From assembly GCA_001938485.1 (NCBI GenBank), contig MQRK01253347.1:27797-78323 (forward strand): DNA of 50,527 bases, given 5' to 3'. The translations under genes were made by a program, and so were the position numbers. The notes under the pieces are model-generated. The model worked only from the letters and a program-made list of their open reading frames with translations. It had not been told where the DNA came from and made no database searches. The stretch comes from Girardia tigrina. Lineage: Eukaryota. Shown one piece after another: positions 7,833 through 50,527 of this stretch (position 1 is its first letter; the number at the start of each line of letters is the position of its first letter).

Positions 7833-10127
7833 ATTAATAATGACAATTAATTAATGTTGTTTGAATAAACGCATTTTAGTAGAAATTAAAAATATGTGTA
7901 ATTTCAAGACAAATACATTTTATTGTTGTTAGGAATTAAAAATTCTATGAAAATTTTTGAAAGAAGGTTATATTAAATATGCACAAATTAAAATTTTTAT
8001 ATAATTAAATATGTAACGTTTGAAAAAATAAAATTACTAAAATTAAGATCAATTAAATTGCTAATAATAAAAATTTTTTGAGAGTTTTTAATATAATATA
8101 AAAAGTAAAGTGTATATTTTTTATATGTGGAATAATTTAAAAAAAATAATAAAATTAAATGTTTTAAAATGTTATCGTAATTTAAAATTGATTTATAAAA
8201 GTAATAAAAAAAATCAAATATGAATATTTATAAGTATTTTATTTATATCAGTTTAAGATTTATAAAACAAATTGTTTCTCAAAAAAAATAATAAGTTTGT
8301 TTAAATATTAGATTTAAACATTTTTGTGAGGTATAATAAAAGTTTTAATGTCAGAAATATCTCATAGTAATAATTCCGACGATGTTCCAAAGAACCTCTA
8401 ATAATTGTCAATTATTTTATTTTCTTATTAAAAGCTATCACGACGAACAATGCATATTAAATTGGGCGATATTTTTGGAGATACTACGAATCGAACGATT
8501 TTTCAGAGTGGCTGGCAAAGTTCGAGTAGATTGCCCGCCTACAGAAGTTGAAGGATTTTGAGTCCATGCTGCTGCTGTTTTGGTCGAAGGGAGCCTTTGT
8601 TGTTTATGACGTATTATCAGATGAAGAGAAACAGGATTACGAAAAACTGAAACGTGCGATGGAGAAAGCGTTTTGCGTCGACAGGGCTACGGCATTTGAA
8701 GAACTATGTCGCAGGAGGATCAGAGAAAATGAACGTGGGGTTTGAAGGAGATTGAGATTATGTGTGACTCAGCGACAGTCTGTTCATGGGTGCGGTCGGT
8801 TATTACGGGAAATAAGCACACAGACTCTCAGAATCTCTGGTAAGGCGATGACTGTTTGTGTTATAGGAGTTGGTGAAGGAACGTGGTGTAATTGTAACGA
8901 TCTCTTTAGTGAAATCAGCTGAAAATAAGTCCGATGATCTGATCAGAGTTCCGTGAAATGGTGGAAAGAGTCCCACAACTGTTTGCTGTCGGTTAGTTCT
9001 GGAACCTTGAAGATGTAAAGTCAGTTCACTCGATTCACTACTGTGGCGTTGATAGAACACTCTACTCAGTTCGCAAGATTTATAGGACAGCAAATGAAGG
9101 ACTTGTAGAGAAAGTAATAAAAGAATGTGATCGCTGTTTATCGATAGATCCAAGTGCGGTGCGTTGGAGCAAAGGTGAATTGGGAGTCGCGAATAACTGG
9201 GGAAGCCTTGCGTGTGATATTACTCACTATGGTGGAGTGATTTATTTCTCTTGTGTTGATTGTGGACCAAGCCGGTTTGAAATTTGGAGACGGTTAAAGA
9301 ACGATAGTGCTGAATGTGTAGTAGAAACACTGGCTGGAATATTTAGAAAGAGGAGACTGCCCACCGAATTGTTGTGCGACAATGGCAAATATTTCCGATC
9401 GGATAAATTGCAAAGCTTTTGTAATACTTGGAACGTAATAGTTAGATACCGTTGCACTTGCAGACCATCCCGAAATGGTATCGTTGAGAGGAATCATCGG
9501 ACAATAAAGAAAATGACAGCAATATCTGGAGATGATGTGTTGGATATGGTATTCTACTACAATATAACTCAAAAAAGCGGGACAAATGAGGAATCAGCTC
9601 CCAGTAATGGAACTTGTTCGTAAAACTGACGTTTGCCGATGGTTAAGCTGAAAGAAAACTGTTCTTACAGGACCGATTTCAAATTATGTGACAGGGTCTA
9701 CGTGAAACCCGCGGAGCGCGATGCACAATTCAGTGGCAGAGAGAGATCGTGTCGCGGGTCAACTCTGGAACGTCAGTCGAAGTGGATGGAGTCCCAAGGC
9801 ATGTAACATATATCAGACCTGAGGCATGAGAGCCGGAAAATATGTTTACCGGAGGAGTATCGGAACGTGAAGATGAATCGGCAACTGAGGAGGTGAGTTG
9901 CTAGATGATGATATTATGGAGGTTTCAAGTATTGTTCATTCATCGGCGAGACCGCAAAGGATTCGCAGACCGCGCGGTATGCTCACAGACTACATAATGT
10001 ATGATGATGAGATCACGGGGGCGTGTGATGATGACAATTAATTAATGTTGTTTGAATAAACGCATTTTAGCAGAAATTAAACAATACATGTAATTTCAAG
10101 ACAAATAAATTTTATTGTCAATTATCA
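7833..10127 (+). mobile_element. Internally deleted, degenerate Gypsy LTR retrotransposon with ~100-bp LTRs
   Basis: Direct repeats 7840-7926(+8409-8414) and 10031-10124. Purine tract GAGATCACGGGGGCG precedes TG at 10024. gag relic 8450-8745. Integrase core (ACDITHYGG..VDCGPSRF..LLCDNG..NGIVERNHRTIK) at 9159-9623. RT is missing. Confidence 0.85.
7927..8403. mobile_element. Solo LTR nested inside the 5' LTR of the Gypsy element
   Basis: Termini TGTTAG...CTAATA; 5-bp TSD ATTGT at 7922-26 and 8404-08. Removing it restores colinearity with the 3' LTR. Confidence 0.7.
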
Positions 10128-12375: not shown

Positions 12376-14824
12376 TAAGGTTGCCAGATGTCCGGTTTTG
12401 AACCGGACAGTCCGTTAATTCAACTGGTTGTTCGGTATAAAAAAATTATAAAAACCGGACTTACATTTGACGGTATTTCTCCCGAAGCTTATTTCCACAA
12501 TCTTCAAATATGAGGTATTCGTATTTTTTTATTTTTTTGGTCGCTCAAAGTTTTTAAGGACAAATAAACATTCCTAAATGGTAATTTTTTTTATCGTAGT
12601 GGGCTATGGAAAAATTTATTTTGGTTTAATACGAAATACAAAATATTAAAGTATTAATTCAAAGTTTTCTGCTGGTGTAAAGGGATAAATTAAATAATAA
12701 ATTTTGTGGTATTTAGAGTTTGAACTATTAAGTGAAAACTTTATTATTAAATTTGTTTTTTTTATAATACTCAACTTTGTCTGTATAACTTTACTATCCA
12801 AATAATTTTAAATTAATTTATTAATTCTAGGTAAGAAATGAGTGAGGTAGAAGAAGGTTCAACAACAAAGAGAAGGAAATGCAATTACAATGCCGATTGG
12901 CAAAAAATATATAATTGGGTCAGCGAAGGCTATGTTGGAAATAAAAAATCCAACAGCAAAGCAAGATGCAAACTGTGCAATGTAACGTTTACTGTTATGT
13001 ATGATGGCATTAAAGCCCTAACACAACATGCAGCCTCAAAAAAACACATTGAAGCTGAAACCGTTGCAACTTCTTCTCAACGATTAACATCTTTCTTTGC
13101 ATCGATGCAGTAGCCCTCGCTGAATTGTTGCATATTTATCATGGTGTAAAACACCATTTATCATACTTGGCTCAGGAATGTGGAATTAAAATTATAAAAC
13201 AGTTCTTTTCTGATTCTCAAATTGCTAAAAATGTTACAGCTGGACGTACAAAAGCTTCGNCAGTTGTACAAAATATTTTGTACCCTTTTTCAATTGAACT
13301 TGTGATAGAAGATTTGAAAAACAACGTACCGTTTTCTATTGCTACGGACGCGTCGAACAAAGGTAATCGTAAGCTATTTCCTGTAGCAATTCAATTTTAT
13401 TCTTTACAAAATGGATTGAGCTTTAAAATATTAAATTTTTATGAAGATGCTTTCGAAGATTCAAGATCAATTAAAGATCAGCTGTTCCGAGTATTAAATG
13501 AGAACGGACTAAATTGGAAAAATATTACTGCATATGGAGCTGATAATTCTAGTGTGAATTACGGAGTAAACAATTCGGTTTTTCAAAAATTAGTGAAGGA
13601 AGAAAATAANNNNNNNNNNNNNNNNNNNNNNNNNNNNNNNATAATTCATAATTGTGCTAAAAATGCTTTGAAATTATTATCTTTTGACATTGAAAACGTT
13701 ATATTGAAAGTGTTTGCTGAGTTTTCCAATTCGGCTAAAAAGCGAGAAAATTTGAAAGAATGTTATGCTTTTTACGAATCAGAATTTCATGAAGTGGTTC
13801 GACATGGTCCTACTAGATGGCTATCTTTATTTAAAGCAGTTGATCGATTGTTACTAAGCTGGCAGCCACTCAAATATTATTTCTTAACTTTGGGCAAAGA
13901 CGAATGTCCAACAACAATATGGACAATGATATCGGATCAAGAACATGAAATATCGCCATTGGATGAACCTACAATTTCCAAAATTTATATTTATTTCGTT
14001 CACTCATTTATGTCTTCATTTCAAAAAATTTTACTGATTCTAGAAACTCGTACAACTCTGGCATGTGATCTTTATTTAATATCGGTAAAATTTCGAGACT
14101 CTTTGAAAAATAAAATGGACACCGAATTTTTTGGCATGAAAGTAAAATTTGCAATGATGAAAAACTATTTAGATCCTTGCCAGGTAAATAAATTCAAAAA
14201 AGAAGCCTTAAATGTATATGCTAGAGCATTGAACTACTTGGAAAAATGGTTTGATTTACGGAATTCTCCATATATGCACTTTCAAACTTTGAGTCTCTCA
14301 GACGGTAAAAAAATCTATAAGTCTGGATGAAATTTAAAAAATTTGGATGTTGTCGCCAATGAAGGACGAAGTTCCACCCGATTGTTTACATACCGAAATA
14401 TGTGCGTTGAATTTGGTAATGGAGACACTTGAAGGAACATCTTCTCTTGAAAAGTGGAATTATTTCTTTCAAAAAGAATCGGCACCAAATTTATTGAAAC
14501 TAGCTCAATTCGTCTTTTCGATTCCAGTTTCGANNNNNNNNNNNNNNNNNNNNNNNNNNNNNNNNNNNNNNNNNNNNNNNNNNNNNNNNNNNNNNNNNNN
14601 NNNNNNNNNNNNNNNNNNNNNNNNNNNNNNNNNNNNNNNNNNNNNNNNNNNNNNNNNNNNNNNNNNNNNNNNNNNNNNNNNNNNNNNNNNNNNNNNNNNN
14701 NNNNNNNNNNNAAAAATATAAAAAGAACCAAAAATAATAAATAAAAATATATGGAAAATAAAATTTTGTTGTTTTATTTTTAAATTTTGTCCGGTATTCT
14801 TCGAAGTTTCAACTGGCAACCCTA
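12376..14824 (+). mobile_element. hAT DNA transposon (Blackjack-like TIRs) with disrupted transposase at 12838-~14720
   Basis: TIRs TA(A/G)GGTTGCCAG; 8-bp TSD ATTGTACA/ATTGTATA. BED-type Zn finger (CKLC..HAASKKH), FSIATDASN, YGADN, TRWLSL and start of the hATC dimerisation domain (FSIPVS). Stop/frameshifts near 13113 and 14330. Confidence 0.93.
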
Positions 14825-20439: not shown

Positions 20440-22090
20440 ATAAACGTAAAGCACATGCCAGGGTTCACAACCAGTTAAACTGTATGGTTTAACTAAAATA
20501 CATAAATCTGGTCATCCACTCCGCCCTGTTTTATCAATGATTGACACGGTTCAGTACAGAGTCGCGAAGGTTCTTGATTCACTATTGAGTCCTTTAATTT
20601 CAAATGATNNNNNNNNNNNNNNNNNNNNNNNNNNNNNNNNNNNNNNNNNNNNNNNNNNNNNNNNNNNNNNNNNNNNNNNNNNNNNNNNNNNNNNNNNNNN
20701 NNNNNNNTATTCACAAACGTACCTATCGATGAAACCATTGATTTGTGTGAAAAGATGTGGGATGAAAACTCTAGCTCTGTGAATGAATTAATGAACAAGC
20801 AGGCACTGAAAGAATTTCTAAAATTTAGTGCCAAAATTGTACCTTTTCTTTTTAATGATGAATGGTACATTCCCCATTAGCACCAACTTTGGCATCAATA
20901 TTTATGAAGTCGCTTGAGGATAAAATGAATGCATACCCTGATGAAAAACCTGTGTTGTACAACAGATATGTGGATGATGTCTTTTTGGTTTTCAGAAATC
21001 AATCCCTCATAAAACCATTCCTAACATTCATGAATGGTCTTCATCCGAATATTAAATTTACCACAGAATTGGAAGTAGATAATAAACTTCCCTTTCTGGA
21101 CATTCTTGTCACAAGAATGAATGGAGACTATAAAACTGAATTATTCATTAAGACAACAGATACAGGTCTTTACACAACACCACAGAGTTTTTGTGAGGAA
21201 AAATACAGAGAGGGTATGATAAAAGGGCTTGTTCACAGAGTTTGGAATTTGTCGTCCAGTTTTGAAATTGCAAATCAGGATTTAAATATTCTTAAAAGGC
21301 GCTTGAGGGACAATATGTATACAAACAAGCAAATAGAACACAACATTAGGATAACATTAGACAAATCATGTACAGATGCACGAGTTAAAAAAAATTAAAA
21401 GAAGAAAATACTGAAGAATACAAACAAATCATTAAAATTCCATATTCTGAAGGATTTAGAGCGTTTAAGAAGAGTATTTGTAGAACNNNNNNNNNNNNNN
21501 NNNNNNNNNNNNNNNNNNNNNNNNNNNNNNNNNNNNNNNNNNNNNNNNNNNNNNNNNNNNNNNNNNNNNNNNNNNNNNNNNNNNNNNTGTCACGGGTGTC
21601 AAAACTCGTACATCGGAGAGACAAATCGTCATCTCAAAACCCGGATTAGCGAGCACTCGCAAATGAGTCGATCGAGTAAGGTTCTTGACCATTGGTTATG
21701 TTGTAATGATAGAACCTCATCCATTTCAAAAGATGAGTTTTCTGTTCTACAAAAGGGTGTTGATTCACATTACGAACGACAGTTTTGTGAATCTCTACTA
21801 ATAAGACACTACAACCCATCAATTAACATTCAGAATGGGCAAAGTAAGGTTATTTCAATACTTAAAATTTTTAATTAAAATATTTTTTGCCATTATTACC
21901 CAATAATACTTTAATAAATAATAATATTTAATCCCTATTATACCTTTTAAAGTTAATGTATCTATTAAAATTGTTTTCAAATTGCTGATGATGATGTATA
22001 TAAACATCGAAACATGTCCAATAATTATATAAAAAAAGCTTTAATCAAATTATATTTTCGAAATACTAAACTTGCGTTCACAAGACTCAA
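20440..22090 (+). mobile_element. 5'-truncated Penelope-like element (RT + GIY-YIG endonuclease), disrupted
   Basis: GSQPVKLYGLTKIHKSGHPLRP, FTNVPIDETI, SPLAPTLA, YNRYVDDVF, LPFLDILV, and CHGCQNSYIGETNRHLKTRISEH (YIG motif). ORF ends at 21878; hammerhead ribozyme downstream. Confidence 0.93.
21981..22022 (+). ncRNA. Minimal type I hammerhead ribozyme in the Penelope 3' pseudo-LTR
   Basis: Stem I ATTG/CAAT; core CTGATGA (21985-91); stem II GATGT/ACATC; GAAA; palindromic stem III ACATGT; cleavage triplet GTC (22016-18). Confidence 0.85.
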
Positions 22091-27149: not shown

Positions 27150-28440
27150 TCTGATCATAGAATGAGAAGTTAGGCGGTTTAAATTCTGACAGAGGCAGGT
27201 GTTTTCGTGGTGTGGGCAAACAAGTTGGCACTTTCTTGTTACTGGAAGATTACGACTCGCGTGTAGTCTGATGAAGCGAATCGTGAGCGAGCTGAAGTTG
27301 GATGATAAGATTCATGGAACAAGTACTAAAATTTTGATGAATATTCAGAAGCGTTTGAATGAATGTGATCGGTGGGCGAATTCTGGACTATTCCGAAGTT
27401 GAAAACGGCTCGTGTATGGTGTCATGTGAGGAGCCTTTTAATTGGTGTATGTATGGAGGTGGATCACATCGTTGTAAAGGATAATTGGTGGTTACGGAAG
27501 AAAAATGATGTCTGCAACATTATTCTGGCAGAATTAGAAGCGGTGTTAAAGGGAGTCAATATGGCTCTGGTGTGAAATGTAACTGGGTAGAATCTGCAAC
27601 AGTTTGCTCTTGGATATGTTCGATCATTTAAGGTACAGGTTCAAGGATTGTTTGAGATGTTGATTAGAAGGCGAAAGAATGTAACACGACTTTGTCGATT
27701 TCCTTGGGGAAATCTATTGAAAACAAATCCGATGTCTTGACCTCGAAGAGTCCCTTCGAGTTGGTTCAAGAAGGCGAAATGTTTGATGTCAGTTAGTAAT
27801 GGGAGCGTTCCTTCTATCGAAAATGTGGAAGCTGTCCATTTGATGCATCATTTCTGTGGGAATAGAGCAGTGTCTCAGTCAAAAAGATCTACATGACTGT
27901 GGATGAGAGTGTAGTCACCAAGGTAGTTGCAAACTGTAACCGTTATTTGTCTATCAATCCATATGCTGTGAGGTGCATCAAAGGCGAGTTATAAGTCTCA
28001 CAAAATTTGCAACACCTGGCGTGTGACATCACGCATTTCGGCGGAGAGATGTTCTTTACGAGTGTCGATTGTGGGCCGAGTCGTTTCGTGATCTGGAGAC
28101 GGTTGAAAAACGAGAGAGCAGAAATCATTGAGGATATTCAGGGAGAGAGGACGTCCAGATGAACTGCTATGTTACAATGGGAAAAGCTTCCGTTCAGAAT
28201 TATTACAGAAGATGTGTGAATCGTTGAATGTGACAGTGCCGTACCGCTGTGCATATCGCTCTTCAGGAAATAGTGTTGTTGAGAGAAACCATCGCACCAT
28301 TAAACGGATGGTGGTGAGATCTGGATGGGACTTGCTAGATATGGTATATTATTATATTTTTACCCCAAAATCAGGTTCCAGTGCTGATTCGGTTAAAAGC
28401 AACGGGATATTCTCGTACGTATGGTGGTTTCCAATCATGA
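27150..28440 (+). mobile_element. Gypsy RNase H/integrase relic, same family as 7833-10127
   Basis: WWLRKKND..IILAELEAVLKGVNMAL; ACDITHFGG..VDCGPSRF; RERGRPDELL; VERNHRTIKRM; many stops and frameshifts. Confidence 0.85.
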
Positions 28441-28749
28441 AAGATTGTAATCTTCTAGCATTATTTAAATACTGAATAATTTAAATTGATAAAAGAAAAG
28501 ATCGGTTATTTGAAAAATTTATTAATAACAAAATCTATCGATTTAAACAATCGATAAAAAAATCATTTTTTTACTTAACAAAAATTAAATTAAAAATCAT
28601 TATTTTTAATTCGAAAAAATTGAATTAAAAATAATTTATTGATTAAGTAATGTTGTCACTTTACAATCTTAATTAATCAATTCAATCAACTAAATTACAA
28701 AAATGAGTTACACAACGAAATTAATTCAATTTGAAGCAGAAATAAATGA

Positions 28750-32520: not shown

Positions 32521-33630
32521 ATGAATCTTCAATTCTTTACTTCAAAATCTGGAAATCCGATTGTTGCGTATGCAGGCTATTCTCATCGCTTGAATTAAAG
32601 GCTGTTTTTTTCATCGGAACCAATCAATTTGGAAAAAAATAAAAGAAACATCAAATCTTCCAGATCTCTATTCAAACAATGATGAAATTAGAACCATTCT
32701 GAAATCAATAATGACCTTAGCGTTTGTTCCTGTGGATGATGTTATCACTGCCTTTTTTGTTTTACTTGACCTTTCCAATGATTATCCAAACTCGATGATG
32801 TCTTTGTATATTTTGAGGATACATATATTGGCCGTGCTCGTGCAGAACGAAGATTACGTCCTCGATATTCCATTCAGTGTTGGAATGTATATGACCGCGT
32901 TATTTCTCATCTACCAAGCACAAACAATGCAATAGAAAATTTGCATCGTGCGTTTCAAAATTCTATTGCTTGCAATCACCCAACTGTTTATAGTTTGATA
33001 AATCAAATTCGTACTGAACAAGATTTTGTTGATCTAATTTTGCAGCGCATTAAACTTCTCTTTAGAATTGAAGAATTCCCACAATTCTCATCGCAAATTT
33101 ATGCCAAAGTAAGTGAGAGGATTGAATGTGTCGTTGAGCAATACAATAAAATGCCAATATTAGATTCTCTTAGAGGCGTTGCTCATAATTTAAACTTTTT
33201 GTATTAAAGTATATATTTACTATTTCATTATTTTAATATATCAGTTTAATGTTTTTGTATCTATCTTCTATTTACACATCAATTTTTTTGGTGTTTTATT
33301 CATTTGTTCTAGAATGTTATTTGAATTTTTTAAATTAGGAATTTACTAATTTTTCGTATGTTGTTTGTTTATTTTTTATATTAAAAAGAATAATTAAATA
33401 TCATGTCGATCTGAAATTTTCTATCCATTTATGTTTTAAAATTAAGCCTGTGTTTTATCATAACATAATTAAAATTTTTTATTCATATTTTAGATGATAT
33501 TTTAAATTCTTTTTTGACTATTTTGTTGTAAATTTTCCGCAGTAAAGTCGCCCGCTGTAAAGTCACCTGTGGTAAAGTCGCCGGCGGTAAAGACGTCTGC
33601 GGTAAAGTCGCCGCGGTAAAGTCGGCGTAC
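32521..33630 (+). mobile_element. Internally deleted MULE (Mutator-like) element with subterminal tandem repeats
   Basis: FLYWCH-like start (FTSKSGNPIVAYAGY); LAFVPVDDV; YFEDTYIG..WNVY..PSTNNAIENLHRAF..HPTVY; six ~15-bp GCGGTAAAGTCGCC repeats at 33538-33627. Confidence 0.8.
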
Positions 33631-36775: not shown

Positions 36776-37311
36776 TAAAAATCTTAATGTAACTGAAGGG
36801 CATCTTATAGTGCTTTTTGTTATAATTCGAGATGACAATTGTGTATAAATAGGAGATATTGATTTTTATTGATTGTGGTAACATTTATTAAAAAAATTAA
36901 CTAATCATGGATAATCCCGCCTACCTTTTTCTNNNNNNNNNNNNNNNNNNNNNNNNNNNNNNNNNNNNNNNNNNNNNNNNNNNNNNNNNNNNNNNNNNNN
37001 NNNNNNNNNNNNNNNNNNNNNNNNNNNNNNNNNNNNNNNNNNNNNNNNNNNNNNNNNNNNNNNNNNNNNNNNNNNNNTAATTAATTATGATATAAATTAA
37101 ATAATGATAAAATTTATAAATAATTATGAACTATTTTATTGAAGTATATGATAGTTTCGAAGTCTCCCCCAACTGGACGGATAACTGACTATCACAGTGA
37201 CTACAGTACCAGAATTGGCGTATGTTGGGTTCTTGATCAATATTAGAATTCATAACACCAAAAATTTATTCAAAAATTTAAAGGATGAACTTTTCACATG
37301 AGTCCTTCACA

Positions 37312-40300
37312 TTCCCCCCGTTTTTGAAATTTTTGAATTTTTCAACATTCCGTATTATTTGTCTATCATTTTTATCCTTCAGCCTATAACTCTTATCATA
37401 GATCTCTTCTATGATTTCATATGGTCCCTCAAATCTGTCTTCGCCTTTCGTCCTTATTTCCTTCTGTATCTTTTATTCTTTTTCTTATATCCTCTCGGTC
37501 TATTTTGCTTTCATTGTGCCACTGTTGTCTGTCTATTTTCTTACCAAACATCACTTCCGCTGGACTGCACCCAATTGTTTTTTGTTTTGTTGCATTTAAT
37601 GCGAATTCCACTTCTGGTAATATATCTGCCCAACTCATGGCATTTCTTTCTTTTAAACTAGCTTGAATAAATTCTCGAATGGTACTGAATTGTCTTTCGA
37701 TTATTCCGTTTGTATTGTGGTGGTATGGACTGGAGAAAATTATTTTAACGCCTTTATTCTCCAACATTTCTCTAACTTTTTTTGCCTCAAAACTCTTACC
37801 ACAATCAACATGTATCTCTTTTGGTGCACCAAATTTTAATATCCATTTTTGTAATATTGTTTGTACAATTGTGTCTTCGTCCTGTCTCTTGATTGCCATC
37901 AAGCTGATGTACTTGCTAAAATGGTCTATCATTCCGAGAATGTATATTTCTCTTCTTACTATTTCATGCCACGGTCCACATATATCTATATAAACCTTTT
38001 CAAATATTTCTGACTCTGTTATTTTAACGTTTTCTTCCTTTGTCTTCGTGGTCATTGTCTTTGTTCCGACCACTTCCTTTACTGTTTTCTTTTCCTCCTC
38101 CATATCAAACTTGTCCCTCAGATATTCGTATACTTTTTCTGCTCCTGCATGATACAATAATCTATGTGTTTGTATGATTAAATCGTTCCGTTTTTCTTTT
38201 GGTATTCATTCTTTTTGACCAGCTCTCGCTTGGCTCCTTGTAGTCACTGCTAATAATCTAGTCTTATTCTTACCCTTTTTAGCTTCTTCATGTTCCATTT
38301 GACACTGGGTACACGTGTCGCAGTTTCGTCTGGATAGCATATCCACGTTGTTGTGTAGTTCTCCTTTCCGGTATTCTATTTCTATATCTAAACTACTCAA
38401 GTAATTCATCCACGTTTAGAATTAAGCTGTTAATGGTTTCTTTGTATGAAACATGAACGTTATAGCTTTATGGTCCGTTCTCAGTTTAAATTTTTTCCCG
38501 TACAAGTAATAATTGAAATGCTGACAGAAATAAAAAAATTCCAAAAGTTCTCTTCTTGTTATGCAATATCCTTTTTCGTGTGCTGTCATTGAATGTGATC
38601 CATATGCTATTATTTGCTCCGTGCCTGATTCACCTATCTGCGATAGTACGGCCCCTATGCTGCCAAACTAGCGTCTGTATCTAGAATAAACTGTTTTTTT
38701 TGAAATTTGGAAAACTCAATATTGGTGCCGTTATCAATGCTTTCTTCATGTCCTGAAAAGCTATTTCACATGCATCTGTCCAAATTATTTTTTCTTTATT
38801 CGAGCCACACATTCCTTCCAATATTTTAGCTTTCTTCGCATATCCATTTATAAACATTCTGTAGTAATTGCAAATTCCTAGAAAACTTCTTAAATTTTTG
38901 ATACATGAGGGTCTTTGAAAATTCTCTACTGCTGCTATTTTTTCTGGATCAGTCTGTATCCCTTTATCATTTATAACGTGTCCTAAAAATTTTACTTCTT
39001 GTCGTAATATTTTACATTTCGATGGTTTGATTCTTAATCCTGTCTCCTTTATTCTTCCAAATACTTCTTTTACTACGTTATAATGTTCTTCCTTTGTGCT
39101 TGTTGCTATTAATATGTCGTCCAGATAAACAGATGCTCCCTTCTTTATCGGTTTTAATACTTTATTCATTAGTTCCTGAAATGTTCCTGGGGCCGCTGCT
39201 ATCCCGAAAGGCATCCGTTTAAAACAGAAAAACCCTGATTTAGTGGAAAACGCCGTTTTTCCTGTGATTCCTTGTCCAATTCTATCTGGTAATATGCATT
39301 TCCTAAGTCTATTGTACTGAAATATTTGGTTCCATGTAGCCTATCCATCATTTCCGTTATATTTGGCATGGGTAATGCCTGTCTCTTTGTAATTAAGTTT
39401 AACTGTCTGAAATCTAGACATAGTCTGATTTCGTCCTTGTCTTTTTTCCAAACGCATACTATTGGTGTGTTCCATTATGAATTACGTGGCTTTATTATTC
39501 CATTTTCCTCTAAATTTTTTATTGCTTCTTCAAGTTTGTCCTCTAAATGTACCGGCTGTCTTCTTGGTTTTATGTTTATAGGTCCCACTGTTGTTTCTAT
39601 TCTGTGTCGTAACAAGTTTGTACACCCGATATCCCAGTCGTTTGCATGAATATGCCTTGATATTGGTGAATTATCTCTTCTAGTGCTTTATCATTTCGCG
39701 TATCGATCATTTTCAATGCTTCTTTTCTTCGTTCTTCGTCTGTGATTCCTTTCCCAAACTTGGCCTCGATTTCACATATGTTAATTTTACTCTTATCCTG
39801 TTGTTTATATTCTTTCCATTTTAGCTCTATTCCGAATTCCTTCATTAATGGCATGCCCCCAATCATGTCTGGTCTTAAATTCTTTACTATTATAAATCTT
39901 ATTTTCTCTGATTTCTTCCCAATTTTTTCAGTGTTTCTATTTCTCTTCTAACATCCATTTTTAATCCATTTGCTGCTGTCAATTTCTGATTTGTTTGTTC
40001 CATTCGTGTGCTCTTCAATTTCTTGAGTATTTCTTCTGTCATTACGTTTATGGCTGCTCCCGTATCTAATAGACATTCAATTTCCGTGTCCTCAATCATG
40101 ACTCTGATACTTGGTCGACCCTCTAATCTGTTGTATACAATTGGTACATTTTCATAATTCGTTATTATTAACAATTCCCTTTCATCATACGTGTCTTTTT
40201 TTATGAATTTCGCAACTTTGTGACTTGTTTCTGGTTCCTGATAGAAGTTCGGCTCACCCATGAATTCTGACTTATTTTCATTAATTTCATATTTTATGTT

Positions 40301-40400
40301 ATTTATATTTAATTTATTATTTATATTATTTATATTATTAAAATTATTACTACTATATATATAATTTATATGATCTGGTCTATCTTTAAAAAAACTTACT
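37312..40400 (-). pseudogene. pol: Gypsy pol (protease, RT, RNase H, integrase with GPY motif), several frameshifts and stops
   Basis: LLDTGAAINV; LCLDFRQLN; MPFGIAAAPGTFQ; VYLDDILI; RTDHKAI; YIDICGP..IHVDCG..NGIIERQF; GPYEII; the frame runs through the PPT. Confidence 0.93.
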
Positions 40401-41484
40401 CCAATGCCAAGATCGGTTCCTCGTCGTCTTGGCACGACTCGTTTTTTTCTGTATTTTCTCGCTTTTCTCGGTATTCTTCCTTCTCCATCATCGCGATCTG
40501 TCTTCCTCTTTCGAATCCTCTTCTGTAGTCGTCTGAGTTCCGATTTTCTGGACTCTTCGTTTGTGAATCTGAGAATTGCTGGCAATCTCTTTGGGTTCTC
40601 CTTTGATAATCCGTTCTCCCTTGGTATCGTTTGTTCAGATTCGTGTAACATTCCTCAGCTCTATGTCCTGGATTGTTACATCTTCCACATCTTACCTTTT
40701 TGCATTCTCGTCGCACATGACCTTCTTCTCCACATGCATGGCATGTGATCTTCCTCTGACGTTTACATTCAAAGCTCTTATGTCCAACTGCCTTACAGTT
40801 CCAACATGTGATGTTGTTCTGCATCGAATATTGTCTTCCGAAGGTATATCCTTTCCTCATTATATTTTTTGTTGCCAGTTCCGTCGTCGTGGTTGTTTTG
40901 ACCACATCTCTATATGTTGGTCGTATTGCGTGCACCGGATTTTCCATTCTCCGGACTTCGTCTACTTTCCTAATGACGTTTTTCACCTCTGCTAATTCTT
41001 TCACATCTCTAAATTTGATTTCTTTCTTCACGTCACTATCTTTTGACGCGTGAATCAGAAGGCATTTCTCTATCTCCGTCTCTGTCCACTCATGCTTCAT
41101 CAATTTTGCCGCCAACTTTTTTGCTTTAACAAAGAATTCCTCCACTGATTCTCCCGATCTCTCGAAGTTCACCGCTTCTATTAAATCATCCATTAACGTG
41201 CTTTTCGTCTGAAAAGCTTGTCGTAACCGGGCTTCATATCCCTTCACTTCGGGACCCACACTTTCGTATATTGGTACGAGTTCGTGTGACAATAACCCAA
41301 TTACCAAAATCTCTTGCATACTTTCCGATACTTTGGCCACTTTGAAGTATCTTACGCAAGCCGAAATGAATGTTTCCACATTATTTTGTCGCCTAAATTT
41401 GTCTGGTATAAGCCTCGAAATTAGTTGTTCGGAGCTGCTGGCGATGGTCGACATGTTGGGTTCTTGATCAATATTAGAATTCAT
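40396..41484 (-). CDS. gag: Gypsy Gag with three CCHC zinc knuckles (intact ORF)
   Basis: CWNCKAVGHKSFEC, CHACGEEGHVRREC, CGRCNNPGHRAEEC; 362-aa ORF starting inside the 5' LTR. Confidence 0.93.
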   Translation of the reverse strand: MNSNIDQEPNMSTIASSSEQLISRLIPDKFRRQNNVETFISACVRYFKVAKVSESMQEILVIGLLSHELVPIYESVGPEVKGYEARLRQAFQTKSTLMDDLIEAVNFERSGESVEEFFVKAKKLAAKLMKHEWTETEIEKCLLIHASKDSDVKKEIKFRDVKELAEVKNVIRKVDEVRRMENPVHAIRPTYRDVVKTTTTTELATKNIMRKGYTFGRQYSMQNNITCWNCKAVGHKSFECKRQRKITCHACGEEGHVRRECKKVRCGRCNNPGHRAEECYTNLNKRYQGRTDYQRRTQRDCQQFSDSQTKSPENRNSDDYRRGFERGRQIAMMEKEEYREKRENTEKNESCQDDEEPILALE

Positions 41485-42186
41485 AACACCAAAAATTTAT
41501 TCAAAAATTTAAAGGATGAACTTTTCACATGAGTCGTTCACAGCGTACATGGTAGTGAGTGATGTATAGTGATGCATAATGTTGTCAGTGCATCACATTA
41601 TCTCTTTCTGCTAAACGCGATGGAATAACATTTAAAAAATGTTTCGATATCTGACAGATTAATGTTGGGTCATCGTCATAGACGACAAAACAGTGACAAA
41701 CTATAATGATCAACCACACTGACACTAACCCTTTTATAAATTTATTAATTATATATTTATGCTTGAATCAAATTTCAATTTGAAGCAATGTTATATCCTT
41801 GGATGTTCCTCGAAATATTGTTTTTAGCAAATCTCACCTTTATTACAGATAGTAATAATTTTGTGTCGATAGTGATGCAAGTATCACATTGAGTGTTTCT
41901 ATGACTAGTAAAATATTTACTAGGAAGTGTTTACTTTCACGCCTTAAATGTAAATTAGCGTATTTATATGTTATACAATAAATTCTTAAAACCGATTTGA
42001 CTATTTATTAATCTTAAATTGAACAATATAAAAGGTATAAAATCAATATTCATAGTAAATGATAGTCAAGAAAATAGTATTCCAAGTAATAGAATGTCGA
42101 ATAATAATTTTTCGAGATGAACTAAAATCTCATCAAATACAAGTTTGGATTTTATAATTTAACTCTAAATATAGATTCTTCGAGCA

Positions 42187-48443: not shown

Positions 48444-50527
48444 ATGACCCAGTCCACCATAATAACTACATCCGGCAATCATTCTCCATTATCCACAATC
48501 ATTCTCCGTCATCCACAATCATTCTCCGTCATCCACAATCATTCTTCATCCTACGCAATCATCCACCATCATCCACAATTATCGCAGTCTGATCATTTTT
48601 ATCTTAGTTTTATTAATATAAATAATTATGTTATACAAACAATATTGTTAAGAAAATTATTATAATTCAATATAATGCCACAAAAATTAAAATTTTATTG
48701 AAAAATCTAAAAATAAGAAAAACAATAATTAATAATCAGCATTGGAAAGAGATTCAGGTCTTCCTATATCATTAACCTGTCTATTTTATAGAGGTTCTAC
48801 TTTCGGGCAGTTGAATATTCGATGACCCAGTCCACCATAATAACTATATCCGGCAATCATTCTCCATTATCCACAATCATTCTCCGTCATCCACAATCAC
48901 TCTCAATCATCCAAAATAATCCTCCATCCTACCCAATTATCCTCCAACCTCCACATAGATTCTCCATCATCCATAATCATTCTTCATCATCCTCAATCAT
49001 TCTCCATCATCTTTAATTATTCTCCATCGGCCACAATCATACTCTATCATCCACAATCATTCTCCATCATCGTTAATCATTCTCCATCATCCACAATCAT
49101 TATCCATCATCAACAATCATACTCCATCATCCACAATCATTCTTCATCCTCGGCAATCATCCTGCATCATACAAAATCATACTCTATCATCCACAATAAC
49201 TCTCCATCATCGTTAATCATTCTCCATCATCCACAATCATTATCCATCATCAACAATCATACTCCATCATATGCCATCATCCATAATCATTCTCCCCATC
49301 ATCCACATTCACACTCCATCCTCCCCAATATCCTCCTACCTCCACAATGATTCACCATCATCCACAATCATTCTTCATCCTCCGAAATCATTCTGCATCA
49401 TACAAAATCATTCTGCATCATCCACAATCATTCTCCATCATCGTTAATCATTCTCCATCGGCCACAATCATTCTCCATCAAAGGCCATCATTTTCCATCC
49501 TCCCCAAACATCCTCCATCATCCACAAACATTCTACATNNNNNNNNNNNNNNNNNNNNNNNNNNNNNNNNNNNNNNNNNNNNNNNNNNGAAACATCCTCC
49601 ATCATACACATTTATTCGACATTATCCGCAATCATTCTCCATTCTCCAAAATCATACTTCATCATCCATAATCATACTCCATCATCGACCATCATTCTCC
49701 ATTATCCGCAATCATTGTACATCATCAACAAGCATATTCCATCATCCATAATCATTCTCCATCATCCACAATCATTCGTCATCCTCCGAAATCATTCTGC
49801 ATCATACAAAATCATTCTGCATCATCCACAATCATTCTCCATCATCGTTAATCATTCTCCATCGACCACAATCATGCTTCATCAAAGGCCATCATTTTCC
49901 ATCCTCCCCAAACATCCTCCATCATCCACAAACATTCTACATTATCCACAATCATTCTCCATCCTCCACAATCATTCTCCATCCTCCACAAACATCCTCC
50001 ATCCTCCCCAATTATCCTCCAACCTACAAAATGATTCTCCATCATCCACAATCATTCTNNNNNNNNNNNNNNNNNNNNNNNNNNNNNNNNNNNNNNNNNN
50101 NNNNNNNNNNNNNNNNNNNNNNNNNNNNNNNNNNNNNNNNNNNNNCCACAATCATTCTTCATGATCCTCAAACATACTCCATCATCAACAATCATCCTCC
50201 AACCTCCACAATGATTCTCAATCATACGCAATCATTCTCCATCCTCACGAAACATCCTCCATCATACACATTTATTCGACATTATCCGCAATCATTCTCC
50301 ATTCTCCAAAATCATACTTCATCATCCATAATCATACTCCATCATCGACCATCATTCTCCATTATCCCCAATCATTGTACATCATCAACAAGCATATTCC
50401 ATCATCCATAATCATTCTCCATCATCCACAATCATTATCCATCATCCATAATCATTCTTCATCATCCTCAATCATTCACCTACAGCCACAATCATTCTCA
50501 ATCATACACAATAATCCTCCATCCTAC
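48444..50527. repeat. 21-bp satellite (CATCATCCACAATCATTCTCC) with duplicated head and higher-order repeats
   Basis: Two array starts share a ~95-bp head (48426-48520, 48804-48898). Variant blocks recur at 49377/49781 and 49589/50249. The array runs off the window end. Confidence 0.95.

Follow-up and report, generated by a model that had tools for sequence, protein, structure and literature searches.

The stretch of Girardia tigrina DNA analysed here (the window: 50,527 nucleotides, contig MQRK01253347.1 of assembly GCA_001938485.1, positions 27,797 to 78,323 of the forward strand) carries on its minus strand, from 41542 to 37223, a Gypsy retrotransposon of 4,320 bp with long terminal repeats (LTRs) of 89 bp. 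These LTRs are very probably the remnant of normal LTRs of about 790 bp that lost some 700 bp, and the copy itself is regarded as dead, a deletion derivative within an unnamed Ty3/Gypsy family. The short-LTR form arose repeatedly in this family, without spreading as a lineage. The original prediction had seen in the element a possible overlooked lineage, with promoter, R region and polyadenylation signal all fitted into 89 bp, and had named sister copies with longer LTRs as the observation that would speak against it. Such sisters exist, with LTRs of 780-810 bp, and the short form is a polyphyletic minority of deletion products.

The deletion is read from the relatives of the element. LTR pairs were searched for with a low minimum length at 100 loci, 60 of them chosen by reverse transcriptase (RT) match, which gave 22 candidate pairs, several with boundaries corrected by hand. 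The sisters L190 (786/787 bp) and L194 (~808/777 bp), at 93-95% RT identity, have long LTRs with an interior of 14% GC. Positions 1-48 of the 89-bp LTR align to the start of the long LTR and positions 42-89 to its end, and the two arms overlap in the heptamer AATAAAT. The 5' LTR (41454..41542) is thus the first 48 plus the last 48 nt of the family's LTR, joined on a 7-nt microhomology (41495..41501) where about 698 bp are missing; the 3' LTR (37223..37311) carries the identical deletion, with its junction at 37264..37270. The AATAAA hexamer pointed out previously is present, at LTR positions 42-47, and is the deletion junction itself. Splicing was rejected as the source of the deletion, as the junction lacks GT/AG or CT/AC, and so was an excised DNA transposon, as the 691-bp interior has no inverted ends.

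Other values reported earlier were reproduced: the total length, the single mismatch between the LTRs (88/89 identical, ends TG...CA) and the perfect target-site duplication (TSD) GCGTA, found at 41543..41547 on the 5' side and at 37218..37222 on the 3' side. The youth deduced from this near-identity is loosely constrained, given that one mismatch in 89 positions spans 0.03-6.1% divergence (95% interval) and that the internal part differs by 3.6-3.8% from two sisters. Caution is called for in general, since deletion can also give rise to a short, near-identical LTR pair bounded by a perfect TSD.

The abundance of the short form depends strongly on how copies are sampled. When the 89-bp LTR itself was the query, 40 of 944 candidates were scored and nearly all were short, several with TSDs of their own; this early sample was misleading because the query favoured short copies, and a search seeded in this way imitates a lineage. 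Samples seeded by RT or by the primer-binding site (PBS) exposed the bias, and 89 bp was rejected as the norm of the family. The 89-bp form occurred in none of the 40 PBS-picked copies (taken out of 100 listed of 173), and exact pattern counts in the genome gave 26 short junctions against 283 long starts, that is, about 8% short (26/309). Nine of 30 long-start loci could be traced to the LTR end, with lengths of 654-816 bp. Contigs from three independent runs part from the window sequence at 41501, and the single loose end listed continues as the long form. In related families the LTRs measure ~740-790 bp (87-91% RT identity) or 230-363 bp (65-73%).

The opposite polarity, in which the short LTR would be ancestral and autonomous and the long form would have gained 691 bp by an insertion that duplicated 7 bp of target, is highly improbable and is largely refuted. 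It would explain why AATAAAT flanks the interior on both sides and why the short LTR retains TG...CA, a polyadenylation hexamer and the gag ATG, and it could draw on the interior not being clearly homologous between families and on a related element with a 141-bp LTR (L185). Against it, the deeper branches of the family have long LTRs or other deletions, LTRs of ~740-790 bp also occur in the sister family, the interior carries no terminal inverted repeats, short copies are a polyphyletic minority, and the copy in the window has a broken pol. L185 itself belongs to a related family (88% RT identity), has LTRs ending in TA and the TSD GATAT, and may represent either a normal or a deletion form.

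Recurrence of the deletion is seen in a gag tree built from the first 480 nt, with 42 of 49 rows retained and seven dropped for short alignments. The 13 short copies require eight changes on this tree, and their monophyly is rejected (approximately unbiased test, AU p=1e-7). All of them lie within the shallow, star-like youngest group, beside nine long copies, and the mean distance between short copies (4.6%, minimum 2.0%) is no smaller than that between short and long ones (4.3%). After contigs with the same flanks were merged, about two dozen short-LTR insertions were counted by eye. Both LTRs are short and in the same register in six of the eight elements with two ends seen (the window copy, L030, L031, L032, L015/L016 and L023-L026); the loss therefore most likely preceded integration. 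With a single exception, the indels seen in 36 short LTRs precede the ATG of the LTR; as about ten distinct events are too few, their placement was dropped as evidence.

Several short-LTR loci have a structure of their own. L023-L026, four contigs with the same flanks (e.g. L023:1090-1591), hold a TRIM-like mini-element of ~500 bp in the order short LTR, tRNA-type PBS, inverted piece of a short-LTR junction, integrase tail, polypurine tract (PPT), short LTR. L015/L016 (L016:807-1537) is a 730-bp derivative with two short LTRs and the TSD TAAGG that keeps 550 bp of gag and lacks a PPT, and L042:3964-4058 is a solo short LTR of 95 bp with the TSD CAAAC.

An assembly artefact, in which the 14%-GC interior of the LTR would have been dropped and the ends merged on a short overlap, is considered quite unlikely. 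The arms of 48 nt on either side would suit it, as would the fragmented assembly with runs of N in many long LTRs and the other sequence runs, in which no form but the long one appears among the rows listed. On the other side, contigs with an end in an LTR break off at differing distances beyond the motif (about 90-500 nt) and not at 48, complete long LTRs free of N do assemble (L194, L197, L213, L219, L234), private substitutions lie within the overlap at some short junctions (L008, L009, L027), L032 has a +4 register matched in both of its LTRs, and other deletions share the right anchor but have no 48-nt left arm.

This right-hand anchor is the feature on which a mechanism can be built. In 20 of the 40 PBS-picked copies the sequence parts from that of intact relatives less than 180 nt from the LTR end, and one more copy ends at a run of N; nine of the 20 breaks fall at -45 to -52 from the LTR end, or six of 17 when like junctions are merged (binomial p 6e-5, computed under a crude uniform null). 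The left partners differ, with deletions of ~356, 597 and 789 nt besides the 698-nt and +4-register forms, and all junctions show 5-13 nt of microhomology. In a sister family (87% RT identity), L184 has LTRs of 66/62 bp with the TSD CCATA and the same right anchor, with one exact match.

On the simplest reading, position -48 from the LTR end would be the 5' end of the RNA, so that the right half of the 5' LTR junction (41495..41501) would mark the start of R. Minus-strand strong-stop DNA, ending in the complement of AATAAAT, may then pair not with R but with an A-rich site farther upstream in U3, an AATAAAT in the case of this copy. The wrong acceptor could perhaps be supplied by RNAs polyadenylated early at the first AATAAA, which follows the integrase stop by 10 nt. 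A daughter made in this way would have both LTRs shortened, would keep 41 nt of U3 and probably no promoter, and would thus be transcriptionally dead. Mis-aimed strand transfer is held to be the probable mechanism, with moderate confidence, and about the same degree of belief, if anything slightly higher, attaches to the account as a whole, in which deletion and strand transfer are taken together with the pol-broken copy and the promoter-less daughters. In self-inactivating (U3-deleted) vectors and TRIM-type derivatives, a U3 deletion at the 3' end of the RNA is likewise copied to both daughter LTRs; here the process is natural and recurrent, has one right-hand anchor and leaves the internal region near full length. 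If the mechanism is true, fossil junctions in the DNA would reveal where transcription of an LTR element starts.

The main competitor is a deletion of biological origin that took place elsewhere, by template switching between short repeats of U3 or by microhomology-mediated deletion of the 3' LTR in an integrated parent, which would then make daughters with both LTRs short; the pile-up on the right would arise because R and the polyadenylation signal have to be retained. This explanation is thought unlikely, less so than an artefact. The microhomology at all junctions fits it, as do the many other internal deletions of the family and a locus that combines a long start with a short 3' LTR (L044), but keeping R permits any breakpoint upstream of -48 and predicts no pile-up there. 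Moreover, a second copy of the same 7-mer lies at LTR position 552, and a join of 42 to 552 has no match in the genome; nor do the short copies have a common parent.

A number of observations weigh against mis-aimed strand transfer, or against the deletion itself. The start of the RNA at -48 is an inference drawn from the DNA; the uniform null is crude; some breaks at 141-179 nt may reflect subfamily divergence; and a second small cluster of breakpoints occurs at -75 (2/20). The symmetric 48+48 structure could also be left by a k-mer assembler, and none of the contig matches listed crosses the short junction. The LTR interior gave global scores of 198 and 210 against the 87% family, with shuffle maxima of 218 and 226; similarity between the two interiors is not significant, which leaves their common descent unsupported. 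Two loci fit poorly: L041, whose 5' LTR is cut at the junction by a deletion extending into gag, and L044, which has no TSD.

In the coding part of the window copy, Pfam detects the domains of a Gypsy element in their usual order: zinc knuckles, protease, RT, RNase H, integrase. The gag frame runs without a stop from 41496 to 40396 and, counted from the ATG at 41482..41484, encodes 362 amino acids (40396..41484) with CCHC zinc knuckles, two stretches being recognized by Pfam and a third CCHC array being invariant in the alignment. This ATG lies, as had been claimed, within the 5' LTR; it stands 31 nt before the LTR end, and homolog P0121 aligns from the same codon. The second ATG that had been described is also there, at 41454-41452, made of the last base of the LTR (A) and the first two bases of the PBS (TG).

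Coding from LTR to LTR, in turn, is contradicted by pol. The remnant (37278..40447, -1 frame, order PR-RT-RH-IN) is broken into six segments by five frame changes (near 39928, 39646, 39260, 38700-38668 and 37471) and holds four in-frame stops relative to homolog P0001, 96% identical; two pieces present in both sisters compared, of 21 bp (near 38066) and 62 bp (near 37471), are missing. The copy hence lacks the intact gag and pol of an autonomous element. The integrase was said to run through the PPT into the 3' LTR; the 258-aa integrase ORF of this copy stops at 37429, 118 bp short of the LTR, and only a tail in another frame, past the 62-bp deletion, crosses the PPT (37312..37325, adjoining the 3' LTR) and meets a stop at LTR position 32, the remnant ending at positions 32-34.

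Although the 89-bp LTR is not a family trait, the leaderless layout is: it is common to the related families whatever their LTR length. An LTR ATG opens into the frame of the junction ATG in 11 of 12 LTR types, against 2/12 and 0/12 in the other frames and about 0.10-0.20 each in shuffles; the 12 types are related and not independent, and L087, L089 and L108 have no gag downstream in that frame. Five of eight gag homologs start 10-14 residues ahead of the junction methionine. At the other end, the integrase of eight of nine readable elements extends 3-34 nt into the 3' LTR, the ninth (L155) being mis-bounded. In the parent family, translation of gag would likely begin either at an ATG some 20 nt downstream of the cap or at the junction ATG, and pol would likely be reached by a -1 frameshift. 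The predicted slippery heptamer, A_AAA_AAC at 40441..40447, lies in the overlap of gag and pol and is followed 5 nt downstream by a putative stimulatory hairpin with a 9-bp stem (40404..40435, z -3.2); heptamer and hairpin are kept in sister families.

The PBS was thought to be a mutated tRNA-Arg-like site that doubles as coding sequence, and comparison with host tRNA 3' ends bears this out. The site (41435..41453) is an imperfect complement of tRNA-Arg(ACG), genes for which are present in the genome, and is read as gag codons; it has a mismatch at base 3, one bulged base and mismatches at its 3' side, and the duplex with the tRNA reaches -25.1 kcal/mol, versus -44.5 kcal/mol for a perfect site. 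By eye, the 100 listed copies comprised 74 with mismatch and bulge, 13 with the tRNA base at position 3, six without the bulge and seven others; exact pattern counts gave 15 tRNA-type sites versus 166, or about 8%. Each of the two tRNA-like states is polyphyletic, with 13 changes for 13 rows in one case and 6 for 7 in the other. This would be expected if the primer tRNA is copied back into the PBS during plus-strand synthesis, a step established for retroviruses. Loss of the bulge shifts the gag frame.

Taken with the mini-LTRs, these counts allow a tentative reading, judged slightly less probable than its negation, in which an unnamed animal Gypsy lineage with a start codon in U5 and a coding PBS would pay two costs at every round of replication, in the form of mini-LTR daughters and of daughters with a frame-shifted PBS (~8%). 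The junctions would then record the RNA 5' end, and both strand-transfer steps might be read out from genome sequence alone, a proposal held with equal reserve. If the mechanism is true, in-genome rates would become accessible for two errors of reverse transcription otherwise studied in vectors.

Observations on PBS sites were also made outside this family. A second abundant Gypsy family, with RT about 65% identical and LTRs of about 230-240 bp (L088, L090-L092, L094-L101, L103-L107, L109-L114, L131), has a perfect 18-nt tRNA-Arg(ACG) PBS that supplies the six gag codons immediately following the junction ATG (219 junction matches, 30 read). Among the perfect-PBS loci L116-L135, 15 of 20 had no RT match and an LTR pair was found in L131 only. 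L155, L157 and L160 represent a related family with the same junction-ATG layout in which the PBS begins TGGTGGCAG, apparently for another primer tRNA. In L048 and L052 the tRNA complement continues ~35 nt beyond the usual 18 at PBS-like junctions, which suggests reverse transcription past the modified base of the primer; ARAGORN calls no gene there. A tandem cluster of four tRNA-Arg genes occupies L053:116-1274.

Assignment to Ty3/Gypsy is based on TG...CA repeats with a 5-bp TSD, within the 4-6 bp expected, a pol order with integrase last, a tRNA PBS and a PPT. The RT and RNase H are nearer to Ty3 (325 bits) than to retroviruses or caulimoviruses, the next non-Ty3 entry scoring 163 bits, and among solved structures the close homolog P0001 matches Ty3 best (7q5b, E 7e-96; 4ol8). 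The lineage forms a supported group of 36 of the 53 rows, with 60-96% identity over RT and RNase H, and includes no named member. Searches with RT and gag for a named clade returned almost only unnamed metagenome proteins, an atlas search gave generic RT clusters, and a scan of metagenomes for relatives yielded two contigs with no LTR pair. No literature on this lineage or on right-anchored LTR deletions was found, a weak negative as the coverage was without most subscription papers, Repbase and GyDB. Ty3 itself shares the TG...CA LTRs, 5-bp TSD, tRNA PBS, PPT, CCHC gag and PR-RT-RH-IN order; in contrast, here the gag frame opens in the LTR and covers the PBS, and a -1 slip is predicted where Ty3 uses a +1 frameshift.

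The Mag clade combines a tRNA-Arg PBS with compact size and several CCHC knuckles, and the Mag element of Bombyx has a 77-bp LTR and a tRNA-Arg PBS, two features for which our literature search gave no confirmation. The RT motifs of the element described here, CLDFR and TAFST, differ from the usual Mag motifs, and the RT searches returned no named Mag/SURL reference. Short LTRs are reported for Mag elements in the portion of the source available (Mag C, mean 174 nt; Mag A, 213 nt) (PMC3601003). The element had also been thought to escape LTR finders with a usual minimum of 100 bp; a minimum of 80 bp is already in use, according to the accessible part of one such study (PMC6238403).

The leaderless layout has precedents in Ty1 and in Gypsy elements of Anncaliia algerae. 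In Ty1 of Saccharomyces cerevisiae the leader has 53 nt, and the PBS (nt 95-104) and the packaging and reverse-transcription signals lie inside GAG, going by the sections at hand (PMC5454406); the missing room for a packaging signal, noticed before, is hence no anomaly. Ty1 is a Copia element primed by tRNAi-Met, whereas the leader of the present element would be shorter and an ATG arises at the LTR/PBS junction itself. The Ty3/gypsy elements of the microsporidian Anncaliia, as far as the excerpted source goes, measure 3.1-4.3 kb; 43 of the 50 complete ones (by eye) open their ORF within the 5' LTR, and the LTRs of four of 50 are shorter than 100 bp; its retro V has a 105-bp LTR with an ATG at 69 and another across the LTR end (by eye) (PMC4202319). 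They encode a single polyprotein, whereas gag has its own stop here and overlaps pol in the -1 frame; no deletion derivatives are described in the text examined, and the PBS start TGGCGACC gave no matches in the accompanying sequence file, in which line breaks can hide matches (PMC4202319). The present lineage shows that a leaderless layout like that of Ty1, in which the PBS is under coding constraint, exists in two-ORF animal Gypsy elements.

The host genome is AT-rich, repeat-rich and 1.43 Gb in size, and other mobile-element remains occur in the window. A fragment of a Tc1/mariner transposase (Pfam HTH_Tnp_Tc3_2) is found at 295-831, and two related integrase-core fragments lie at 8997-9623 and 28107-28475, with an rve match for the first only. 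The ORFs at 13059-14721 and 32782-33207 are transposase-like with no Pfam match and are presumably hAT-like and MULE-like, respectively. A Penelope-like remnant with weak RT and GIY-YIG matches is located at 20862-21878, and a strongly skewed, degenerate tandem repeat with open frames rich in His, Ser and Ile extends from 48844 to 50411.

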